Source of the DNA: a virus
Lineage: Duplodnaviria; Caudoviricetes
DNA length: 55,938 nt
IMG/VR virus record: IMGVR_UViG_3300025098_000053
Span: 1-55,938 of that record
Direction: 5' to 3' (one strand)
The position numbers and the translations under genes were made by a program. This document shows positions 38,982 to 53,978 of the stretch, piece after piece. Positions within the stretch are counted from its first letter, which is position 1, and every line of letters starts with the position of its first letter. The notes under the pieces were generated by a model. The model was given only the letters and a program-made list of their open reading frames with translations, was not told where the DNA came from and ran no database searches.

Positions 38982-41093
38982 ATGCCATCAAATTTTAATA
39001 ATTACTATTCGATAACAGATGCAACGTATGCTATTGAAATACCCAGTACAATATCAGCATTGGGGTTTGATCCTAATTTCCCATCAGCTGTGGAAGAAAC
39101 TGGATCCATCTTTACGGATGAATTTTTAGGATTTGGAAGTGTTGTGCCTCAAAACCTTCCAGAATTAGACGCAACAGAAGCAATAAGAACTGCACAAGAT
39201 GTAGCAGCACAAAACCTTGGATTTGTAAGAGGCATTCCTGATATTGGTTTTGGTGGTGTAAGTTTTGAAGGTGCAGAATCAGATTTAAATTTTGATGTTG
39301 ATCCAAACTTCCAAAACATATTAGATGACGTTGATTGGGATGCATTTCCTCGAGGATGGGGAGAACCTGATCCACCCAAAGGCCACACAAGCAGCACAGT
39401 TTTTGGTGAATTTAACAAAGGCCAAAAAGATATTTCTGATAATGGTGGCGATGTAGTTGTTATAAACGCTGATTTTAAAAGAGTTTTTAATCAACCTAAC
39501 TTCCAAGGGCCAATGGGGCCATTCGTTGTAACGCTTGAAAGTGAAACAACAGGAATTAGATATCCTTCATTTAGTGGTATTCCCACACAGAGTTTGCTTT
39601 TATATACAACCATAAATCAAGATAAGTTATATTTCTGCACACATCCAATGCCAAAAGGACGTTATCAAGTTAATGTTCAGTTTAGAAATGGCAATGGTTT
39701 TTGGGATAGAATATATTTAAACAATGCATTATTGGTTGTGCAAAGAAATAGAAATGATGCAACAATGGGTGTGAGAGCAGCATTACCAAGCTTCTGGAAT
39801 GCAGGAGAAAGATCTGATAACTTTACTCCACCCGTTCCATATGTAAAAGGAAGTGAAAGTAATAATGCCATATTAACTTCAGCCATTGCAGAAACAACAA
39901 ACTATATGATCGATTCTGATTATACAGTTACGACAACAGAATTATTTCCGGTTGATATCCCAAACCCAGGCAATTATATAATACAGGTTGAAAGCACAAA
40001 AGGTTTTCCACCGTTTGGCCAAGTTAATATTGGTGGTGATGTTTATGATTTTGAAGTTAAAACAGAAACTGCATTGGTTCTTAATGAATATACAACAGGC
40101 CAAATAAAGAAAAGGTTGCCAAAAGGCACCAAAGTTAATATAAATCACATGGAATATTCTGAAATAGAGAATATTTATAAGCGACAAAACTTTAATATTC
40201 GCAAACCAGGGTTTGAAATGACCGATACAAATTGGCTTGCAGCATTTAGAAGAGTTTATCAAGGTGCATTTAATACACAAGCAACGTTATTCAATTACTT
40301 CTTTCATCTTTTCAGAGGAGTTAATGTAAGATTTTGTGCAACTGTTGCAAATGGTAGATTAATGAATGTAATAAATCCTTCATTATATCAGGGAATTTAT
40401 GATGCATTGCCTTTTGATATACAAGAAAACTTAAAAGTTAATTTAAATACACCTTTAAATACAGCACATGAACGTCGTCCAATGATCGTTTCAAGAGAAC
40501 CTATATTTGATTTGAATAGAGATGAATTATATTACACAAATGGTATTATAAAATCTGAAGGATTTGGATTTATATTGGAGCCAAATGATAGTGCATACTG
40601 GAGAGGCGCATATGGTTATTTAAACCTTAATGAAGATGGACGTCCAGTTGATGAAAACGGTGTTGTTTTGGAAGATATTGATGCTTCTCAAGCAAATGTT
40701 ACAAATCCAAACTTACGTGAAGTAAGAATTCCACCTGTTGATGAAAATGGTGAGCAGATTATATACTTCTGTGAAATATTACCATGGTTCTGGACGCAAG
40801 ATAGTGGTGGAAGATTTGAATTAGAATTAGATGATAGTGTATTAAACGTTATATCGAGCATGATTGATATTAACTTCATTGATTTTGATATATTCCTTGA
40901 TTCAATTGCAAGAAACGAATCAAACGTTGTAAGTGATCTTGGTTTAAATGATTTATTATCCAGTGGTGTTATAGGTAGAATTACAAAAAGAAGCAGAGGT
41001 GGGGAATTTGGAACACACGTTGAACCTAATGCTAATCCTGCCTTGGTTGATATAGACGTTTCAAATAACTTTATATTAGATCCAACGGAGTAA
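38982..41093 (+). CDS. Putative baseplate/tail structural protein
   Basis: 703 aa; IQVESTKGFPPFGQVNIG beta-domain; AAGGAG RBS. Confidence 0.5.
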   Translation: MPSNFNNYYSITDATYAIEIPSTISALGFDPNFPSAVEETGSIFTDEFLGFGSVVPQNLPELDATEAIRTAQDVAAQNLGFVRGIPDIGFGGVSFEGAESDLNFDVDPNFQNILDDVDWDAFPRGWGEPDPPKGHTSSTVFGEFNKGQKDISDNGGDVVVINADFKRVFNQPNFQGPMGPFVVTLESETTGIRYPSFSGIPTQSLLLYTTINQDKLYFCTHPMPKGRYQVNVQFRNGNGFWDRIYLNNALLVVQRNRNDATMGVRAALPSFWNAGERSDNFTPPVPYVKGSESNNAILTSAIAETTNYMIDSDYTVTTTELFPVDIPNPGNYIIQVESTKGFPPFGQVNIGGDVYDFEVKTETALVLNEYTTGQIKKRLPKGTKVNINHMEYSEIENIYKRQNFNIRKPGFEMTDTNWLAAFRRVYQGAFNTQATLFNYFFHLFRGVNVRFCATVANGRLMNVINPSLYQGIYDALPFDIQENLKVNLNTPLNTAHERRPMIVSREPIFDLNRDELYYTNGIIKSEGFGFILEPNDSAYWRGAYGYLNLNEDGRPVDENGVVLEDIDASQANVTNPNLREVRIPPVDENGEQIIYFCEILPWFWTQDSGGRFELELDDSVLNVISSMIDINFIDFDIFLDSIARNESNVVSDLGLNDLLSSGVIGRITKRSRGGEFGTHVEPNANPALVDIDVSNNFILDPTE

Positions 41094-41374
41094 TGATGAA
41101 TAAGGAAAAAAAAGTGCTTTCGCCAATGCAAAGCAAAAAGTTTTTGGCTTATCTTTTCGCTGATATAGGCTGGAAAGCTATTATTTTATATCAGTTAATG
41201 CACCTTAAAGGAAAATTGGAGTTAAATGAACTCACATTCCTTATAACAACTGTTATTACAGCAGGTGTAATACAAATCGGGTATATTTTAGGGCAAAACA
41301 GCCTTGATAAATACCTAAGTTCAGCTGTGGAGATATTTGATAGGGACGAAAAGCCTCCTAAAAAAGAGGATTAA
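41093..41374 (+). CDS. Two-TM holin-like protein
   Basis: SKKFLA start, two hydrophobic segments, YILGQ..LD, charged C-terminus. Confidence 0.6.
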   Translation: MMNKEKKVLSPMQSKKFLAYLFADIGWKAIILYQLMHLKGKLELNELTFLITTVITAGVIQIGYILGQNSLDKYLSSAVEIFDRDEKPPKKED

Positions 41375-41375
41375 A

Positions 41376-41567
41376 ATGATTTTTGATGAAACAACGGTTT
41401 GTGGATTATGCAAAGAAGCTCAATGCATTTGTACTATTTATAAATGCCCTTGTGGAAAGCTTGAAACAAATTGTAAATGGCCGCTTGATGATAAATGCCC
41501 CTGTAGAATATGTGATGAATTAGCAATAAACTGTTCTTGCCATAAACCTTTGGAGGAGGAACAATGA
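41376..41567 (+). CDS. Cys-rich metallothionein-like peptide
   Basis: 63 aa from MIFDET with GAGG RBS; 12 Cys mostly in CxC/CxxC. Confidence 0.65.
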   Translation: MIFDETTVCGLCKEAQCICTIYKCPCGKLETNCKWPLDDKCPCRICDELAINCSCHKPLEEEQ

Positions 41568-42238
41568 AAAAGTTTTTATTATGGTTATCTATCGTTGTGA
41601 TATATAGCTATATCAATTTAATACAAATATTCCCTTCATGGGCGCAAAGTTATGAATGTGATAACAATTTTGAAGATTGTGGCACACCAGAACAAAGCGG
41701 TGGCGGTGGAGGAGGAGGATCTGTTTTAATAGCAAACACCGATTTAGGTGATAGTTATCAACATGCAGATGATTATGATGATGATGGCGTTGAAGATCCA
41801 TCTGATAATTGTATGAGGTATCCCAATCCACAGCAATTAGATCGTGATGGTGATGGGATAGGTGATGCATGCGATAATTGTATGGATTTACATAACATAT
41901 ATCAGGACGATGCAGATGGAGATGGATGGGGTGATTTCTGTGATGACGACATTGATGGTGATCAGATTGAAAACGTCGTTGATGAATGCCCATATATGTA
42001 TGGTAATTCGTTTTGCTTCGAAGAAATAAACAGAGAGCATCCTCGTGATTCTGATCAATACATTCAACCAGTTTGGAAGAGTGATAAATTAGAAAACCAT
42101 ACAAATGATCTTGATGAATCCGGAGATGGTTGTAATCAAGCATATAATAAGAAAAAAGGCTCATGGATTTGGTGGGCGTTTTTTGGATGGGTTTGTTATT
42201 TATTTTCAAGATGGGAAAACATACATAAAAAGGATTAA
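41564..42238 (+). CDS. Thrombospondin type-3 repeat surface protein with MYXO-CTERM-like anchor
   Basis: Signal peptide, DxDxDG..D..DNC repeats, C-terminal GDGC + TM + basic residues. Confidence 0.85.
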   Translation: MKKFLLWLSIVVIYSYINLIQIFPSWAQSYECDNNFEDCGTPEQSGGGGGGGSVLIANTDLGDSYQHADDYDDDGVEDPSDNCMRYPNPQQLDRDGDGIGDACDNCMDLHNIYQDDADGDGWGDFCDDDIDGDQIENVVDECPYMYGNSFCFEEINREHPRDSDQYIQPVWKSDKLENHTNDLDESGDGCNQAYNKKKGSWIWWAFFGWVCYLFSRWENIHKKD

Positions 42239-42241
42239 AAA

Positions 42242-43093
42242 ATGAATTTGCCAGATGATAATATTGTAGAAGCTGATATAGCTATTGTTTTGACCGATAT
42301 TATTGGAAGCACAGCATTTGTGCAAAGAAATGGCAAACATGCTGCAGCAAAATGGTTTTCTGCACATGATAAACTTGTAATGAGTTTAATAACAAAACAC
42401 GGTGGGCAGTGGTTGGATAATTCAGATGGAACTTTAATGTATTTTGGTAATGTGCCAGATGCTATTGCTTTTGGATTTGCATATAAAAAGTTTTTAAGAA
42501 AGAAAAAGTTTCCATTTAGGAGTAGGATTGGCATTCACTGGGATAGTATGCTCATTGTAAAAACAGAACAGAGTTTAGTTTCCGGTGGAGCAAAGAGATT
42601 AGCCATCGAAGGTATTGGAAAAAATATTGCTGCAAGAACAATGAGCCTTTGTGGCCCTGAACAAATATTACTTTCACATACAGCATATACAATATTTAAA
42701 CAATACGGGCATCGAAATCCATTTATACCTAAAAAAGCATTATCAGCACTTGTAGGTTTATATAAATTTAAAGGTGTTGCAGAACCTGAGCGTATTTATG
42801 CTATAGGTTTAATAACAGAACAAATGCAACCGCCTAAAGATAGTGAAAAAGCAAAGCGAATTGGTGGCGCAAAGAAAATAAAAACAAGAATGAAACATAA
42901 ACGATGGAGTGAGATCTTCTTTTATTTTTATTGGAGGATTGGATTCATTGCTTTTTGTTATTGGATCTGGGTTTTCTGGCCATTATTAACATCTTCACAG
43001 ATGAAAAGCAGTTGGAATATTGATTATTGGTTTTTACGTCCGTTTGAGGCGATAGATTATTTAATATGTTTTATCAAGGATAACATAAAATGA
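42242..43093 (+). CDS. Class III nucleotide cyclase with C-terminal TM
   Basis: LTDIIGST, DNSDG, RIGIH, NIAAR, QILLS and FKG..EP motifs. Confidence 0.9.
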   Translation: MNLPDDNIVEADIAIVLTDIIGSTAFVQRNGKHAAAKWFSAHDKLVMSLITKHGGQWLDNSDGTLMYFGNVPDAIAFGFAYKKFLRKKKFPFRSRIGIHWDSMLIVKTEQSLVSGGAKRLAIEGIGKNIAARTMSLCGPEQILLSHTAYTIFKQYGHRNPFIPKKALSALVGLYKFKGVAEPERIYAIGLITEQMQPPKDSEKAKRIGGAKKIKTRMKHKRWSEIFFYFYWRIGFIAFCYWIWVFWPLLTSSQMKSSWNIDYWFLRPFEAIDYLICFIKDNIK

Positions 43094-43218
43094 AAAACAG
43101 CAGCATTCTGGAAATCTTCTGGATAACGTTTTTATTAGGAGTTATATTAACACAACTTTATTTTACACATAAAGAGTTAGGAGATCCAAGTGGTATCGAA
43201 AAAGCCAGAAGAATGTAA
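43090..43218 (+). CDS. 42-aa single-TM peptide
   Basis: MKNSSILEIFWITFLLGVILTQLYF...; overlaps the cyclase stop; AAGGA RBS. Confidence 0.5.
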   Translation: MKNSSILEIFWITFLLGVILTQLYFTHKELGDPSGIEKARRM

Positions 43219-43657
43219 AAAAGAAGTAGCGCAAGAAAAAAGAGAAACACGTGGTTGGATATTTGCTGTTGTGTTTCTCTTTATTATTATAATGTTGATT
43301 ATATTTCTTGCTTACGTAGATTTTAAGGAAAGCAATAGGGACGTTCTTGTTGGTTTGTTTGGTGTATTATTTGGTAATATTCCTCACATGATAACGATAG
43401 CAAGTGGTAGGAGCCCTGAAGAATTGGATGATTTAAAAGATAAACTTGGATCGGCAAATGCAGATCGTCAAGCACTTATCTCAAGATTACGTGATTCACA
43501 AATACAACTTCAGCTTGCAAGGCAACAAATATTTGAGTTGCAAAATGCTGTAATTGAAGAACTTTCTATGTTTAGAGGAAAGAAACCAATTAAAAGTTTG
43601 CATGAGAATGATGTAATATTGCCTGATTTGGTTGATGAGTGGTCGCCAAAAAAATAA
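43190..43657 (+). CDS. Two-TM plus coiled-coil membrane protein
   Basis: GTG start with AGGAG RBS; two TM segments flanking NRD, then heptads. Confidence 0.75.
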   Translation: MVSKKPEECKKEVAQEKRETRGWIFAVVFLFIIIMLIIFLAYVDFKESNRDVLVGLFGVLFGNIPHMITIASGRSPEELDDLKDKLGSANADRQALISRLRDSQIQLQLARQQIFELQNAVIEELSMFRGKKPIKSLHENDVILPDLVDEWSPKK

Positions 43658-43720
43658 ATAAACAAAAGATGTTTATAATATATAATAAATGAATCAATAA
43701 ATCGTTGAAAGGATTTAAAA

Positions 43721-44053
43721 ATGAAAAAACTATTACTCGTACTATTTATGCTCTTCCCATTTACAGCATGTGAGAAGGAAGAGAAAGAACAAAAAGAGCC
43801 TGTCGTCCGTGAGGAAATGGATGCACAGCCTTGTGTAGAAGAAGAGGAAGGTGATATGGGCCTGGAGGGTGGCATGGAAATGGAAGAAGGCGGAGAACAA
43901 GCTGGTGTAGAAGAAGAAGATATGGCTGGCGACCAAGATGTATCTGGTGGTGAAGAGGATGAGCCTGAGTTACCAGTTGCTGGTGAAATGATGCCTGAAG
44001 AAATGCCTGAGGAAGGTGGTCAAATGGATGAGGAGGAAGATCCGGGCGAATAA
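43721..44053 (+). CDS. Acidic disordered lipoprotein
   Basis: MKK + hydrophobic stretch + FTAC lipobox-like site; E/G/M-rich. Confidence 0.75.
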   Translation: MKKLLLVLFMLFPFTACEKEEKEQKEPVVREEMDAQPCVEEEEGDMGLEGGMEMEEGGEQAGVEEEDMAGDQDVSGGEEDEPELPVAGEMMPEEMPEEGGQMDEEEDPGE

Positions 44054-44109: not shown

Positions 44110-44259
44110 ATGAATAAAAACTTATTTATCTTACCTAATGGCGACAAAGCCAAAATATATAGGAAAATCAGTAATATAAGAACCGCACAGGGTTCAGTAA
44201 AAACGTTATACGTTCTCTTTCTTTTGAAAGATAATTCTTGCGTTATACATCTGGATTAG
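44110..44259 (+). CDS. 49-aa hypothetical protein
   Basis: AAGGAGG RBS; MNKNLFILPNGDKAKIY... Confidence 0.6.
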   Translation: MNKNLFILPNGDKAKIYRKISNIRTAQGSVKTLYVLFLLKDNSCVIHLD

Positions 44260-44503
44260 CTGCGGTTTTTTTATGCGCAAGTTTTGCATTATAAACTTCA
44301 ACAGTAATATCTTTTTTATATTCCACAAGATCATCAATCATCAGTTGAAGATTCATTGTATTTTCCAATGTTTTCTCTTCCGTTGCAATAATCTGTGATA
44401 AAACATGCTGTTGAAATTGGCTGCTTTGTCGTAAAAAATAAATTGTTAGAAACAAAGAAACGAGTGATAGCAACGAAAGTGCTGATAGTATAATTGTAAT
44501 CAT
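44243..44503 (-). CDS. Single-TM hypothetical protein
   Basis: N-terminal TM; AGGAG RBS. Confidence 0.7.
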   Translation of the reverse strand: MITIILSALSLLSLVSLFLTIYFLRQSSQFQQHVLSQIIATEEKTLENTMNLQLMIDDLVEYKKDITVEVYNAKLAHKKTAANPDV

Positions 44504-45294: not shown

Positions 45295-45825
45295 TCATAT
45301 CATTCTCTCCAATTTCTGTAATAGATCTTCGTGTGTTTCAAAACAAGGTGAAGCACGTTCTTTGTTGTAAAATTTAAAAGCTTTATCTTTGTTGATAAAT
45401 CCACAAACTTCATATGTATTTCTATTAAGTTTCTTTACCAAACAATAAATATCAGAAGCATATTTTTTTCTATGCCTTGGGATTAATAAATGTGCATGAA
45501 ACAATGTTTTAGTTGTTTTAACTTCAAGAGAATGTTTATTTCCATTCTTATCCTCAAAAACAAAATCCCATTTATCATCTTTTGATTTTCTGCTTTGAAC
45601 ATCTCTTGTTGAATCATCAAGAATTTTATAATTATATTTTTCTAAAAACTTCTTGATTACCCACTCACCTGATAAACCTAAAACATCACGTTTGTGTGTT
45701 TTTGGTGCAGGTTTATTTCCCCAAGAGTATTGCCTTGAGTTCTTCTTTGCATTTTCAAATCTTTGTTTTGCTAAAGAATCAATTTCTTTAAGCTCTGATG
45801 TCGTAAGATTTATTAGTAATCTCAT
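45295..45825 (-). CDS. PD-(D/E)XK endonuclease-like protein
   Basis: GLSGE...WDF...LEVKT catalytic pattern. Confidence 0.75.
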   Translation of the reverse strand: MRLLINLTTSELKEIDSLAKQRFENAKKNSRQYSWGNKPAPKTHKRDVLGLSGEWVIKKFLEKYNYKILDDSTRDVQSRKSKDDKWDFVFEDKNGNKHSLEVKTTKTLFHAHLLIPRHRKKYASDIYCLVKKLNRNTYEVCGFINKDKAFKFYNKERASPCFETHEDLLQKLERMI

Positions 45826-46322: not shown

Positions 46323-47087
46323 ATGTTTGAGTTAGTAAATAAAAACAAAGAGTATGTTAAACAACTTCAGGAAGAAATTGGAGTGCATGCTGACGGAATA
46401 TTTGGCAAGGGATCTTTGAAAGCTGCGGAGGAATATTATGGTGGCCCAGTAATTGCACATATGGGTAAAATTGTACCAATCCCAGGAGCATCATATGTTG
46501 TTGATCACAAACATTCATTATGGCAGCTGCCAGATGGCACCAGAAATCATCGAATGCGTAAAGGTGATGCTTCATCCATATGCGTTCATTGGGGTGGCTT
46601 AAACGTAAAACATTGTTATATGGTGTTTTTTGGTGCAAAGGATCGTCATGTATCTTCACACTTTGGAATTGGATGGGATCCAGTTGAAGAAAGATATGAA
46701 ATTGATCAATGGCTTGATACTGGTGTAGTTGCATATCATGCAGGAAAGTTTAATGGTTATTCAATAGGGATTGATATTACACAACATCCATCACCTAAAT
46801 ACCTCAAACATACACAAAAGTTTTATCCTGATGCACAAGTAATACCCAATCCTTCAGGGAGAGGCCCAAGTGAATGTGTTGATTTAGATCCAGAAATTGC
46901 AAGAATCGCATCTGAGTTTATTGAGGATTTAAGAAAGATTGCAGAATTGGATCATAAACCTAAATGTTTGGATGAAGAAGTATATTCTGTAAAAGATGCA
47001 TCAAAGTTTTCCGTTGTTGGGCATCACAATTTAAGTAAAAATAAATGGGATTGTGCTCCTTGGATGGAAGAATTATATGGAAATTAA
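46323..47087 (+). CDS. Endolysin: PG-binding domain plus Zn amidase
   Basis: VKQLQ..G..ADGIFG; CVH, SSHF, AYHAG..N..SIGID, VGH and DC motifs. Confidence 0.88.
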   Translation: MFELVNKNKEYVKQLQEEIGVHADGIFGKGSLKAAEEYYGGPVIAHMGKIVPIPGASYVVDHKHSLWQLPDGTRNHRMRKGDASSICVHWGGLNVKHCYMVFFGAKDRHVSSHFGIGWDPVEERYEIDQWLDTGVVAYHAGKFNGYSIGIDITQHPSPKYLKHTQKFYPDAQVIPNPSGRGPSECVDLDPEIARIASEFIEDLRKIAELDHKPKCLDEEVYSVKDASKFSVVGHHNLSKNKWDCAPWMEELYGN

Positions 47088-47293: not shown

Positions 47294-48025
47294 ATGTGTA
47301 ACAATACTTTCGTTAAAACAGAAAAACAATTCCAAGATGTAGTTGAACTAATGGGCGACCTCAATCCTGATCATACACCAGAAGAAGTGCTTGTGATGGC
47401 AACCAATTATACAGTTTATTTCAACAGTGATAGATCAAACCGTGTATCACATACAGATGTTACAACACCTTGCCAATTTCATTTAAAAGAAGATGGAACT
47501 CCATTTTCAATTGGCGCACAAAAAGCACAAGCCAGAAGAAATCTTGAGGCACATGTTGGAATGGCAAAACCTTTTGGAGCAAGATGGCATGTTGCACATC
47601 TTTGTGAAAACTGCAGCAGTGCAAAACAAATCTGTGTTAATCCAGAACATCTTTATTTCGCAACTCCAAAAGAGAATCACCATGATGTTGATCGTTTAGG
47701 TAATCCAACAGGTGCTTTAAAATCTGCTGTAACTAATAAGGCAAATAAAACTGGATGTTTTCATAATCCAAAAGTTCGTCATAAAGCACAAAAGCTTGGT
47801 GGTATTGCTGGATCAAGATCTCAAATGAAATCTGGGAATCACAATACAATGAAGAAAGATAAAACATGCAAATACTGTTTCTCACAACATTCAGCATTCC
47901 ACATCAATCAACATGAAGCAAGATGTGCAAAGAAAAGAGGATTAGTATCTCATATGCCAAGAGCAACAAGAACAAATCCTAATCCGGAAATGATTTACTT
48001 TCCAGAAAATTTGTTAGCTTCATAA
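47294..48025 (+). CDS. His-Me (Zn-binding loop) HNH-type endonuclease
   Basis: VAHLC...CVNPEHL..T..EN..D; C-terminal CxxC...H...C. Confidence 0.8.
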   Translation: MCNNTFVKTEKQFQDVVELMGDLNPDHTPEEVLVMATNYTVYFNSDRSNRVSHTDVTTPCQFHLKEDGTPFSIGAQKAQARRNLEAHVGMAKPFGARWHVAHLCENCSSAKQICVNPEHLYFATPKENHHDVDRLGNPTGALKSAVTNKANKTGCFHNPKVRHKAQKLGGIAGSRSQMKSGNHNTMKKDKTCKYCFSQHSAFHINQHEARCAKKRGLVSHMPRATRTNPNPEMIYFPENLLAS

Positions 48026-51998: not shown

Positions 51999-52696
51999 TG
52001 GCCAAAAAAAAAGTAAAAGTTGAAGCAACTGGATTAAAACATTTTTCTAATAATGATGTAAAACATAAGTTAAGCAAAATTACTGATGAAGATGTTGAGT
52101 TAATAACTAATCCTGAGGAAGATTTGTTTGAAAGTGGTCGTCAAACCCATCAAAGTTTTTCTCTGGTTTCTGATCTTGATCTTCCTGTTCAAACCAAAGG
52201 CCCTTTTTCTCCAATTGATAGGAGTAGATGGATTATTGTTGTTGAGAATTGTTTGATAAGAGGTGTTAAATCTGCACAGAAAATAGCTAAACTAACATCA
52301 CTTTCAGTTCCAACAACATCAACATTCATTAAAGAAATAAAAGCTAAATGGGAATCAGATCTTACAATCCCAGAAGTTAATATAAGAAGAGAAAAACTGT
52401 ATAATGAAAATGAAGCTATCTCACAATTTTGTTGGAGTAAAATACAACAAGATCCAGATGGAAAAAATGTTATACCCTTTTTAAAGTTAATAGGAGAAAG
52501 TTCAACAAGAAGAGCAAGATTGGTTGGCGCTGAAGTGGTGAGTTTAAATGTTGAAAAAGCAAATTCAATGAGATTAACTCAAGATGAGATGCAGGAACAT
52601 GCTGCAAAATTATTAGAGGTTAAACCCTCAGATCTTAAACAATTAGGTGATGCATTAGCATTAGAATTATCAGGAGGAGATTCAACTGATGAGTGA
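51998..52696 (+). CDS. HTH protein, terminase small subunit candidate
   Basis: Start MAKKK; SAQKIAKLTSLSVPTT HTH and RRARLVGAE motif. Confidence 0.55.
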   Translation: MAKKKVKVEATGLKHFSNNDVKHKLSKITDEDVELITNPEEDLFESGRQTHQSFSLVSDLDLPVQTKGPFSPIDRSRWIIVVENCLIRGVKSAQKIAKLTSLSVPTTSTFIKEIKAKWESDLTIPEVNIRREKLYNENEAISQFCWSKIQQDPDGKNVIPFLKLIGESSTRRARLVGAEVVSLNVEKANSMRLTQDEMQEHAAKLLEVKPSDLKQLGDALALELSGGDSTDE

Positions 52697-53978
52697 TAAA
52701 GAAAAGATAATAGTATTAGATACTTCCGTTATTCTCTATGATAGAAACGCAATCCATAATTTAGGCAACAATAACATATACTTGCCTTTGGTTGTATTAG
52801 AGGAGTTGGATAGGAAGAAAACAGCCGAAGGTGTATTAGGAGAAAACGCCAGATACATTAACAGATTATTGGATGGTTGTCGCAGTGAAGGTAATTTAGC
52901 AGAAGGCGTTCCTTTTGGTGAAGCATCATTAACAATCATTAAAGATTTTTGCAAAGATACAATGATAACTCTTGAAGAAAGAACAAATGATCATAAAATT
53001 CTTGCAACTTGTGCTTGGTTAAAACAATCAAAGCCACAAGCAAGAGTTCGTTTGGTATCAAAGGATATAAACCTTCGAGTTAAATCTGATGCATTAGGAA
53101 TTGAAGCAGGAGATTATTATACAGATTATGAAGATGTTGATGCAGAATTAACTGGTTGGAAGGAGATAAAGGTTTCCAAACAAACCATTGATAAACTATA
53201 TAAAGATCAAGAAATGGATCTGAATAAAAAATGGGGATTATCTGAGAACCAATTTGCTGTATTAAAATGTGGCCAAGCATCTGCATTGGTATGGTTATTT
53301 GCTGATAAGGTAAGATTGCTGTTTTCTCCAGAAGAAATAAAAAAAGAAACTGGATCAACACCTAAAAACAAAGAACAACTCTTTGCATTATCAGCAATGA
53401 TTACAGAAGCTATTCCTTTGGTATCATTATCAGGTATCCCAGGAAGTGGTAAAACATATTTGGCATTAATGGCTGCATTATCTGAGTTAAACAATGGCAA
53501 TTATGAGAGGATTATATATACAAGGCCTATCGCAACTGTAGATAAAGGAATTGGTTTTCTTCCTGGAACTTTGGAAGAGAAGTTTGATCCATTCTTGGCA
53601 CCATTATCTGATAACTTTCAGAATGCTTTTGGAAACTTAGATTATTTTCACCTTTTGAGAGAGAAAAAGAAAATAGATATTGCACCCATTTCATTTATCA
53701 GAGGTAGATCTTTAAAGGATTGCTTTATAATTGTTGATGAAGCACAAAATGCAACAAAACATGAACTTAAAACAATCATTACAAGAGTTGCAGAAGGCAG
53801 TAAAATAGTTTTAATTGGTGATACCAAACAAATAGATACTCAATATCTTGATGAAAGATCAAATGGTTTAACAATCATTGCAGATAAATTCAAAGGAAGT
53901 AAATTGGCAGCTCATGTTCATTTTACAAAGGGATATCGTTCTCCTCTTGCAACAGAAGCAGATTCATTAATCGAGTAG
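52689..53978 (+). CDS. phoH: PIN domain + PhoH-family ATPase
   Basis: VLDTSV, VLEELD, NDHKIL, SKDINLR; GIPGSGKT, IGFLPG, RGRS, DEAQN, GD..QID. Confidence 0.95.
   Translation: MSDKEKIIVLDTSVILYDRNAIHNLGNNNIYLPLVVLEELDRKKTAEGVLGENARYINRLLDGCRSEGNLAEGVPFGEASLTIIKDFCKDTMITLEERTNDHKILATCAWLKQSKPQARVRLVSKDINLRVKSDALGIEAGDYYTDYEDVDAELTGWKEIKVSKQTIDKLYKDQEMDLNKKWGLSENQFAVLKCGQASALVWLFADKVRLLFSPEEIKKETGSTPKNKEQLFALSAMITEAIPLVSLSGIPGSGKTYLALMAALSELNNGNYERIIYTRPIATVDKGIGFLPGTLEEKFDPFLAPLSDNFQNAFGNLDYFHLLREKKKIDIAPISFIRGRSLKDCFIIVDEAQNATKHELKTIITRVAEGSKIVLIGDTKQIDTQYLDERSNGLTIIADKFKGSKLAAHVHFTKGYRSPLATEADSLIE

Follow-up and report, generated by a model that had tools for sequence, protein, structure and literature searches.

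We present an analysis of a putative phage-specific gene cassette at positions 41093-44053 of a 55,938-nucleotide stretch of viral DNA (Duplodnaviria; Caudoviricetes; IMG/VR record IMGVR_UViG_3300025098_000053, positions 1 to 55,938), hereafter called the window, which is a 55.9-kb piece of a virus record with a CheckV completeness of ~40%. Seven open reading frames (ORFs), designated A to G, lie in this region, and the two that form its core are D, a membrane-anchored class III nucleotidyl cyclase, and F, a small holin-like membrane protein, which stay together in 41 of the 42 phage lineages compared. The anatomy of the cassette can be described with considerable confidence; that it ties a nucleotide signal to a holin-like membrane protein is put forward tentatively, as a possible function suggested by sequence comparison and structural models. 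The D-F pairing has not been described before as far as literature searches can tell, which is not proof of absence: no phage cyclase paired with a holin-like protein was found by searches whose coverage was short on subscription journals, and no holin coupled to a cyclase turned up in the literature searched.

A first-pass annotation, made from the sequence alone, had described six abutting or overlapping ORFs followed by an acidic lipoprotein, and all seven were recovered on the + strand at the positions given below, with neighbours that abut or overlap. They can be taken as real genes and not chance frames, because the order A to G recurs in a relative whose D is 85% identical to that of the window and because C, D and F have hundreds of family members each.

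D occupies positions 42242-43093 (+ strand; 283 amino acids, aa) and is laid out as an N-terminal catalytic domain (~8-195), a conserved basic linker, a transmembrane (TM) helix (~222-250) and a short variable tail, the C-terminus lying 33 residues past the membrane helix. The N-terminal region of the NCBIfam model TIGR04510 matches residues 14-206 at 8.2e-37, and among PDB sequences Ma1120 of Mycobacterium avium (2.6e-8, 36.6 bits) and Rv1900c (LipJ) of M. tuberculosis (2.3e-5) were recovered, together with a Pfam PF00211 match of 15 bits (E 0.019) that does not reach the gathering threshold of 21.9. With the AlphaFold model of D (pLDDT 77), Foldseek returned 189 matches in the PDB at E <= 0.001, those listed all being class III cyclases, among them Ma1120 (5d0e; E 1.9e-13, target TM-score 0.90) and Rv1900c (E 1.0e-12, TM-score 0.87); a cluster look-up yielded the name 'class 3 adenylate cyclase' only. 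As judged from profile matches and predicted fold, D is a real class III cyclase domain, of a divergent subfamily to which TIGR04510 is better fitted than PF00211. The cyclase call of the first-pass annotation is thus upheld by NCBIfam, PDB sequences and fold in agreement, though below the Pfam cut-off.

The profile alignment sets D19, D62, N128 and R132 of D on the corresponding positions of both Ma1120 and Rv1900c, and from established knowledge of class III enzymes we take D19 and D62 to be the metal-binding Asp residues and N128/R132 the transition-state pair. Conservation was followed in an alignment of the window's D with D of the 42 lineages (43 sequences), in which identity to the window's D goes down to 38%. 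D19, D59, D62 and R95 are found in 42/42 sequences covering those columns, one of the 43 being gapped there; all 43 carry K118 and R132, and 40 carry N128. Retention of this kind down to 38% identity argues that the catalytic positions are all under strong purifying selection, and D looks active, its catalytic competence being predicted from intact, conserved catalytic residues. These residues all lie on a single chain, as they do in homodimeric bacterial cyclases.

The substrate-defining positions follow neither known pattern, the canonical pair being Lys/Asp for ATP and Glu/Cys for GTP. The invariant Asp59 of D aligns with Lys in Ma1120 and with Asn in Rv1900c, an alignment made inexact by a one-residue gap beside this first substrate site. 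The second substrate-defining site is Ala in the window's D and, across the 43 sequences, Glu in 21, Asn in 20 and Ala in 2. Despite the shared fold and the aligned metal Asp pair and Asn/Arg pair, D is only 23-25% identical to Ma1120 and Rv1900c, carries Asp where Ma1120 has its substrate-defining Lys, and differs from both in its N-terminal catalytic domain, its single C-terminal anchor, the lack of a sensor domain and its restriction to phages in the searches made. In outline D would be a cytoplasmic cyclase that is anchored by its tail and lacks its own sensor domain, a topology suggested by the hydrophobicity of the chain and the predicted model; TM helices were judged throughout from Kyte-Doolittle windows and AlphaFold helices and not by a dedicated predictor.

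TIGR04510, the 'putative peptide modification system cyclase' family of proteins of ~814-905 aa from Aquimonas and Lysobacterales, is the best-scoring family for D. Its cellular members of 881-888 aa are 36-39% identical to D over the catalytic domain, and long proteins of this type on a contig of Aquimonas voraii (L077) also show, by eye, a hydrophobic helix right after the catalytic domain. D nevertheless scores 127.1 bits against a cut-off of 400, matches only profile positions 7-204 of 814 and lacks the C-terminal part of ~600 aa that contains tetratricopeptide repeats. The Aquimonas loci further hold, by eye, leader-like small peptides and SagB-like ORFs, none of which occur in the phage cassette. 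By these comparisons D is not a member of TIGR04510 and shares its catalytic domain with it; no paper naming the family was found in searches short on subscription journals. On the Aquimonas contig itself (L077:2716-14554), two tandem proteins of ~860-905 aa, each with cyclase domain, hydrophobic helix and long C-terminus, are interleaved with opposite-strand peptides of 83-112 aa and three SagB/nitroreductase-like ORFs, in what resembles by eye a TIGR04510-like system.

The family of D comprises at least 641 proteins in the protein collection searched, all of 250-304 aa among the 120 matches listed. A scan of viral contigs located 71 D loci in records of up to 297 kb. ORFs were called at these loci, starts in relatives being first-start calls, and compared with the proteins of the window; the loci were collapsed to 42 lineages at 90% D identity, and lineage counts rest on loci spanning at most 6 kb either side of D. 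A scan of one genome per species for 185,579 prokaryote species gave no match to D with two peptide patterns, weak evidence of absence on which the family may be called phage-restricted within the searches made. DNA and protein searches with D and F against 50,697 GenBank phage records likewise gave no match. This much of the first-pass reading is supported: a membrane-anchored class III cyclase that phages encode and that has conserved membrane partners is real, and it is widespread among viral contigs.

F is found near D at 69/71 loci, or 41/42 lineages, and at the two loci without it the contig stops right after D (L070) or 1.1 kb after D (L017). The distance from the D stop to the F start lies between -94 and +115 nt in 33/41 lineages, the stop and start codons usually overlapping; seven lineages (L020, L024, L026, L028, L032, L034 and L035) have 1.2-3.9 kb inserted between the two genes, and L051 shows the reversed order, F before D and abutting. 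The pair recurs in three contexts, namely behind tail-fibre genes near the endolysin as in the window, beside a helicase and NUDIX gene (17 lineages), and between terminase and a Mu-like portal (11 lineages), and D is single-copy in each of five large relatives (G001-G005). By gene layout the coupling of D and F is almost obligate and translational. The other members are far less constant near D: A at 34/71 loci (within 6 kb; 25/42 lineages), B at 14/71 loci by BLAST and in 15 lineages by clustering, C at 3/71, E at 3/71 (BLAST) and G at 4/71, with the endolysin at 7/71. The comparison thus resolves the cassette into a core of D and F, frequent extras A and B, and local passengers C, E and G. 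The first-pass annotation had proposed an operon built around the cyclase and a neighbourhood comparison as its test; the proposal holds for F, which travels with D, reaches only about half of the lineages for A and B, and fails for C, E and G, which co-occur with D in the nearest relatives only. One of the D-F inserts (L032:6898-8354) contains three ORFs of 150-170 aa without hydrophobic helices, which appear related to one another by eye over their first 50 residues.

F (positions 43190-43657, + strand, 155 aa) opens with a basic N-terminus, after which a strongly hydrophobic helix and a Gly/Ser-rich one are joined by a short loop; a conserved coiled coil of ~50 residues with invariant Arg and Asp positions follows. 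Its family alignment holds 29 invariant columns, and across lineages F is more conserved than D. The predicted model places helices at 9-42, 50-71 and 76-124 (predicted TM-score 0.38). F matched no Pfam family, including no cyclic nucleotide monophosphate (cNMP)- or nucleotide-binding family; a fold search with its model gave no match at E <= 0.001, and its ESM Atlas neighbours were viral 'hypothetical protein' clusters only. A small size, two hydrophobic helices and a charged C-terminal part are features that F shares with holins and antiholins.

The wider relatives of F offer an indication of its possible role. A search of 1.84 billion representative proteins with the F profile returned 127 proteins, many of them shorter (~110-145 aa) and of the same 2-TM coiled-coil layout. 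F itself matches phrog_9990, a family of unknown function, weakly (1.3e-3), and nine of ten shorter relatives match the same family at 1.5e-10 to 8.7e-4; apart from one short relative with a weak match to the holin family phrog_5871 (E 0.0036), no named holin family was hit. The surroundings of the short forms were examined at 80 of 297 viral loci, representing 16 lineages. An M15-type endolysin (phrog_894, 1.2e-27) lies on the same strand within 150 nt of the short F at 27/80 loci and within 1.5 kb at 34/80, a phrog_3427 holin lies within 2.5 kb at 28/80, and a D-like cyclase or A-like gene occurs within 5 kb at 0/80. From this genomic company, the wider family of F is a lysis-cassette resident in smaller phages, and its long form is joined to D instead. 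A recurrent lysis cassette was also noticed in the smaller marine viral contigs (L081-L160; e.g. L121:2151-3884 and L144:4480-5753), in which the short F-like ORF is accompanied by the M15-type endolysin, the phrog_3427 holin, an ORF with one TM helix and a coiled coil, and an ORF of ~113-136 aa for a secreted protein.

Because an intact tethered cyclase core, a near-obligate coupled partner and relatives of that partner in lysis cassettes are seen together, we infer a single unit with a link to lysis. During infection, D would produce a cyclic nucleotide on the cytoplasmic side of the inner membrane, D and F would act as one unit, with F either regulating D or being its local target, and the pair could link the nucleotide signal to membrane permeabilisation, that is, to lysis timing. 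A, with its two TM helices, and B, with its 12 Cys and probable zinc binding, may be optional extra subunits or inputs, and C, E and G may be passengers in the window's lineage. Cyclic nucleotides are central to bacterial anti-phage immunity, as in CBASS and Pycsar, and to our knowledge the phage-side tools reported so far degrade or sequester them. The D-F cassette would be the reverse case, in which a phage family keeps its own membrane-bound cyclase with catalytic residues intact; if active, the pair could show how phages write host second-messenger signals or put lysis under nucleotide control.

In its narrower and rather improbable form, this reading would make of the pair a lysis clock, in which the nucleotide made by D is read directly by the cytoplasmic coiled coil of F, B and A serving as inputs, so that a nucleotide of phage origin, and not holin concentration alone, would set the timing of hole formation or of its inhibition. 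F would in that case be a new kind of nucleotide receptor.

Several observations weigh against a tie between nucleotide signal and holin-like protein. The activity of D, its product and its contact with F are themselves predictions; the PF00211 score of D stays below the Pfam threshold; the non-canonical substrate positions of D are the reason why no product is named here; and F carries no recognisable nucleotide-binding domain, which leaves the 'effector' of the first-pass annotation unproven. For the short forms, adjacency to an endolysin extends to 7/16 lineages with one endolysin type (phrog_894) profiled, the phrog_3427 holin is separate from the short F in some loci, and the role of the short F is ambiguous between holin, antiholin and a spanin-like function. 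In four large relatives (G001-G004) the endolysin homologue lies 60-125 kb from D-F, and the pair is therefore not in a classical lysis cassette there, in contrast to the 2.7 kb seen in the window. A complex prediction of two D and one F scored 0.00 in a run made without controls and speaks neither way on a D-F contact.

On the side of a lysis role, both F (two hydrophobic segments and a charged coiled coil) and A (two segments and a charged tail) have a holin-type layout, and neither in the window nor in a complete relative of 239.5 kb is the endolysin flanked by a hydrophobic ORF, so F and A remain holin candidates. Spanins were considered separately. A typical o-spanin is proline-rich and a typical i-spanin has one N-terminal TM helix followed by a periplasmic coiled coil. 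A pair with F as i-spanin and G as o-spanin was rejected on the second hydrophobic helix of F, which would place the coil in the cytoplasm, and on the presence of a G-like lipoprotein at only 4/71 loci; G as an o-spanin was set aside as acidic, of low complexity and not proline-rich.

The strongest alternative, possible and leaning towards unlikely, is that D serves host takeover, flooding the cell with cAMP, cGMP or another cNMP and reprogramming metabolism by way of receptors in the host (CRP-type regulators or cNMP-gated proteins, for instance), with F merely anchoring, assembling or regulating D. A CAP-type cNMP-binding domain (PF00027) is absent from the window and from all five of the large related records, two of which reach 95% completeness or more, in searches whose controls matched, and the receptor would therefore be host-encoded or novel. 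The variable, 'moron-like' positions of the cassette and a PhoH-like auxiliary gene in the window fit such a role, as does the adenylate cyclase reported, in the available part of the source, beside curli (type VIII secretion system, T8SS) genes in uncultured pelagiphages (PMC9599517), a case that resembles D in being a cyclase gene of an uncultured marine phage. Left unexplained by host takeover are the higher conservation of F than of D, the retention of F in 41/42 lineages and the lysis-cassette setting of its relatives; in addition, no host receptor can be named. A curli context like that described for the pelagiphages in the same portion of that report was looked for and rejected, since a search of the window and of four large relatives gave no CsgG (PF03783). 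The cyclase-like DUF2652 proteins, as far as the available part of PMC4886424 describes them, form a different, cytosolic family and were likewise put aside as irrelevant to D.

A role in conflict with other phages is doubtful. The cassette would here resemble a Pycsar- or CBASS-type module in which a rival phage triggers D and the membrane effector F collapses the cell or excludes the rival. As in Pycsar (PycC and PycTM), a gene for a class III-type cyclase comes first and one for a small membrane protein second, weak PycC matches exist, and the cassette moves between unrelated phage backbones. The best PADLOC PycC match of D (8.2e-6, 23.4 bits), however, is weaker than its adenylyl cyclase matches, far below the 127 bits of TIGR04510 and below the 36.6 bits of Ma1120; no PycC structure is among the fold matches listed, and no further PADLOC match rose above noise. 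The TM effectors of Pycsar are defined by a cNMP-binding domain, and F has none. The cassette is moreover phage-encoded and not situated in host defence islands, and the two-pattern scan of the 185,579 prokaryote species genomes did not recover the D family. By these comparisons D-F is not a Pycsar system.

Markedly improbable is the view that there is no functional link, with A and F as ordinary lysis or membrane genes and D as a captured, possibly inactive cyclase relic. It could draw on the endolysin only 2.7 kb away in the window, where no other hydrophobic ORF flanks it, and on the Pfam cyclase model remaining below threshold. It has to contend with the strong purifying selection suggested at every catalytic position of D down to 38% identity, with the single copy of D in five large relatives and with D staying beside F in three contexts, far from the endolysin. 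The fallback of the first-pass annotation, an unrelated set of captured genes around a holin, gains some weight from the short relatives of F that stand beside endolysins; D, however, is not a random capture, because the pair is kept in 41/42 lineages.

Least credible, and largely refuted by the neighbourhood comparison, is a single six- or seven-gene sensor-cyclase-effector operon, in which the TSP3 protein C would be a sensor for calcium or for the cell surface, and the TM peptides and the lipoprotein would be further subunits. In its favour, C does have TSP3 repeats, and both the window and the relative with an 85%-identical D carry all seven ORFs on one strand with abutting or overlapping neighbours. 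Against it, D is accompanied by C, E and G at only 3, 3 and 4 of 71 loci, C lies 46-50 kb off in two of the large relatives (G001 and G003) and could not be found in the other three (G002, G004 and G005), and in most lineages B abuts D exactly at the insertion point of C.

Among the accessory members, A (positions 41093-41374, + strand, 93 aa) carries two hydrophobic helices and a charged C-terminus, and its start coincides with the last base of a 703-aa tail-fibre-like ORF, placing the cassette at the end of the tail-fibre region. Homologues of A often come after F or are divergent from D on the other strand, and their alignment is strongly conserved; searches of Pfam, PHROG, NCBIfam and PADLOC gave nothing above noise. 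Its recurrence near D makes A an accessory member of the cassette, as far as gene neighbourhood can tell.

B (positions 41376-41567, + strand) encodes 63 aa with 12 Cys. The longest ORF begins at TTG 41337 (41337-41567, 76 aa), and the ATG at 41376 is the likelier start. A frame with at least eight Cys ending at the D start occurs in 18/42 lineages and one with at least six Cys in 20/42, against a background of 0.8% of 1254 small frames; BLAST under-counts B because B is short. The pattern CxxC..CxC..CxC..CxWP..CxCxxC..CxC aligns in 19 sequences. B has no signal peptide and no family hit in Pfam, PHROG or NCBIfam, its ESM Atlas scores are all < 0.9, and in most lineages that possess it B abuts D where C sits in the window. 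These features suggest that B is probably a cytoplasmic zinc-binding mini-protein with an accessory role.

C (positions 41564-42238, + strand, 224 aa) begins with a signal peptide, contains three TSP3 repeats and ends in a hydrophobic anchor. Its TSP3 assignment in the first-pass annotation is confirmed by Pfam TSP_3 at 5e-16, above the cut-off, and the N-terminal region of the NCBIfam model MtsC matches at 4.8e-47 (160.8 bits against a cut-off of 350); the family counts at least 613 proteins of ~210 aa. C is a secreted protein with repeats of the calcium-binding type, as its signal peptide and profile matches indicate, and a lineage-specific insertion between B and D that stands outside the core, and a sensor role for it is not supported by its scattered distribution.

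E (positions 43090-43218, + strand, 42 aa) has one hydrophobic helix and overlaps the end of D and the start of F. An E-like small hydrophobic ORF between D and F was seen only in L007, L008 and L033, and in most lineages F follows D directly without E. G (positions 43721-44053, + strand, 110 aa) is very acidic and has a lipoprotein-type signal, its lipobox having been assigned by eye; its matches to lipoprotein families are weak and N-terminal only. No homologue of G was found in the five large related records (0/5), and G reads as a lineage-specific neighbour and not as the module component that it had been supposed to be.

Downstream of the cassette, an endolysin of the amidase type lies at 46323-47087 (+ strand; phrog_1493 endolysin, 1.6e-4; phrog_1794 amidase, 2.6e-3), separated from F, 2.7 kb upstream, by four minus-strand ORFs. 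One ORF between cassette and endolysin (44243-44503, - strand, 86 aa) combines an N-terminal hydrophobic helix with a coiled-coil-like region, a spanin- or holin-like layout that appears similar in form to the 1-TM coiled-coil ORFs of ~93 aa in the short-F lysis cassettes. A 176-aa ORF at 45295-45825 (- strand), without a family hit, has counterparts of 26-28% identity adjoining the endolysin in 7/71 related loci. Directly after the endolysin stands a Cys/His-rich ORF of 243 aa (47294-48025) with no PHROG hit. Promoter-like sites numbered 26 against 38.6 in shuffled sequence, and terminator-like sites were near expectation; with counts at or below chance, operon boundaries were therefore not drawn.

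The window encodes terminase, portal, protease, major head protein, tail sheath, baseplate and PhoH-like proteins, a gene set which identifies a myovirus; by gene content and matching sequencing runs, the window is a marine myovirus fragment. Positions 41093-44053 are present near-identically in five runs from four studies labelled marine metagenome, and no RNA runs were listed among the sequencing runs matched. A 534-base contig covers 42949-43482, from the end of D through E into the start of F, and differs from the window in 14 places; it was not counted as a sign of expression, the RNA label of its run being a guess for what may be DNA, and contigs as such do not show transcripts. The best cultured phages for terminase and capsid are assorted phages only ~25% identical, and no tRNA genes were found in the window; the host is therefore not named, and with it no host receptor. 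PhoH-like genes are frequent auxiliary genes of marine phages, and that of the window, a phosphate-starvation-inducible gene, lies at 52689-53978 (phrog_2765, 4.1e-89). Related phages in 10/42 lineages carry a DUF481 protein (Pfam 3e-21; e.g. L026:10773-11525), which is presumably of an outer-membrane family and thereby hints at a Gram-negative host.

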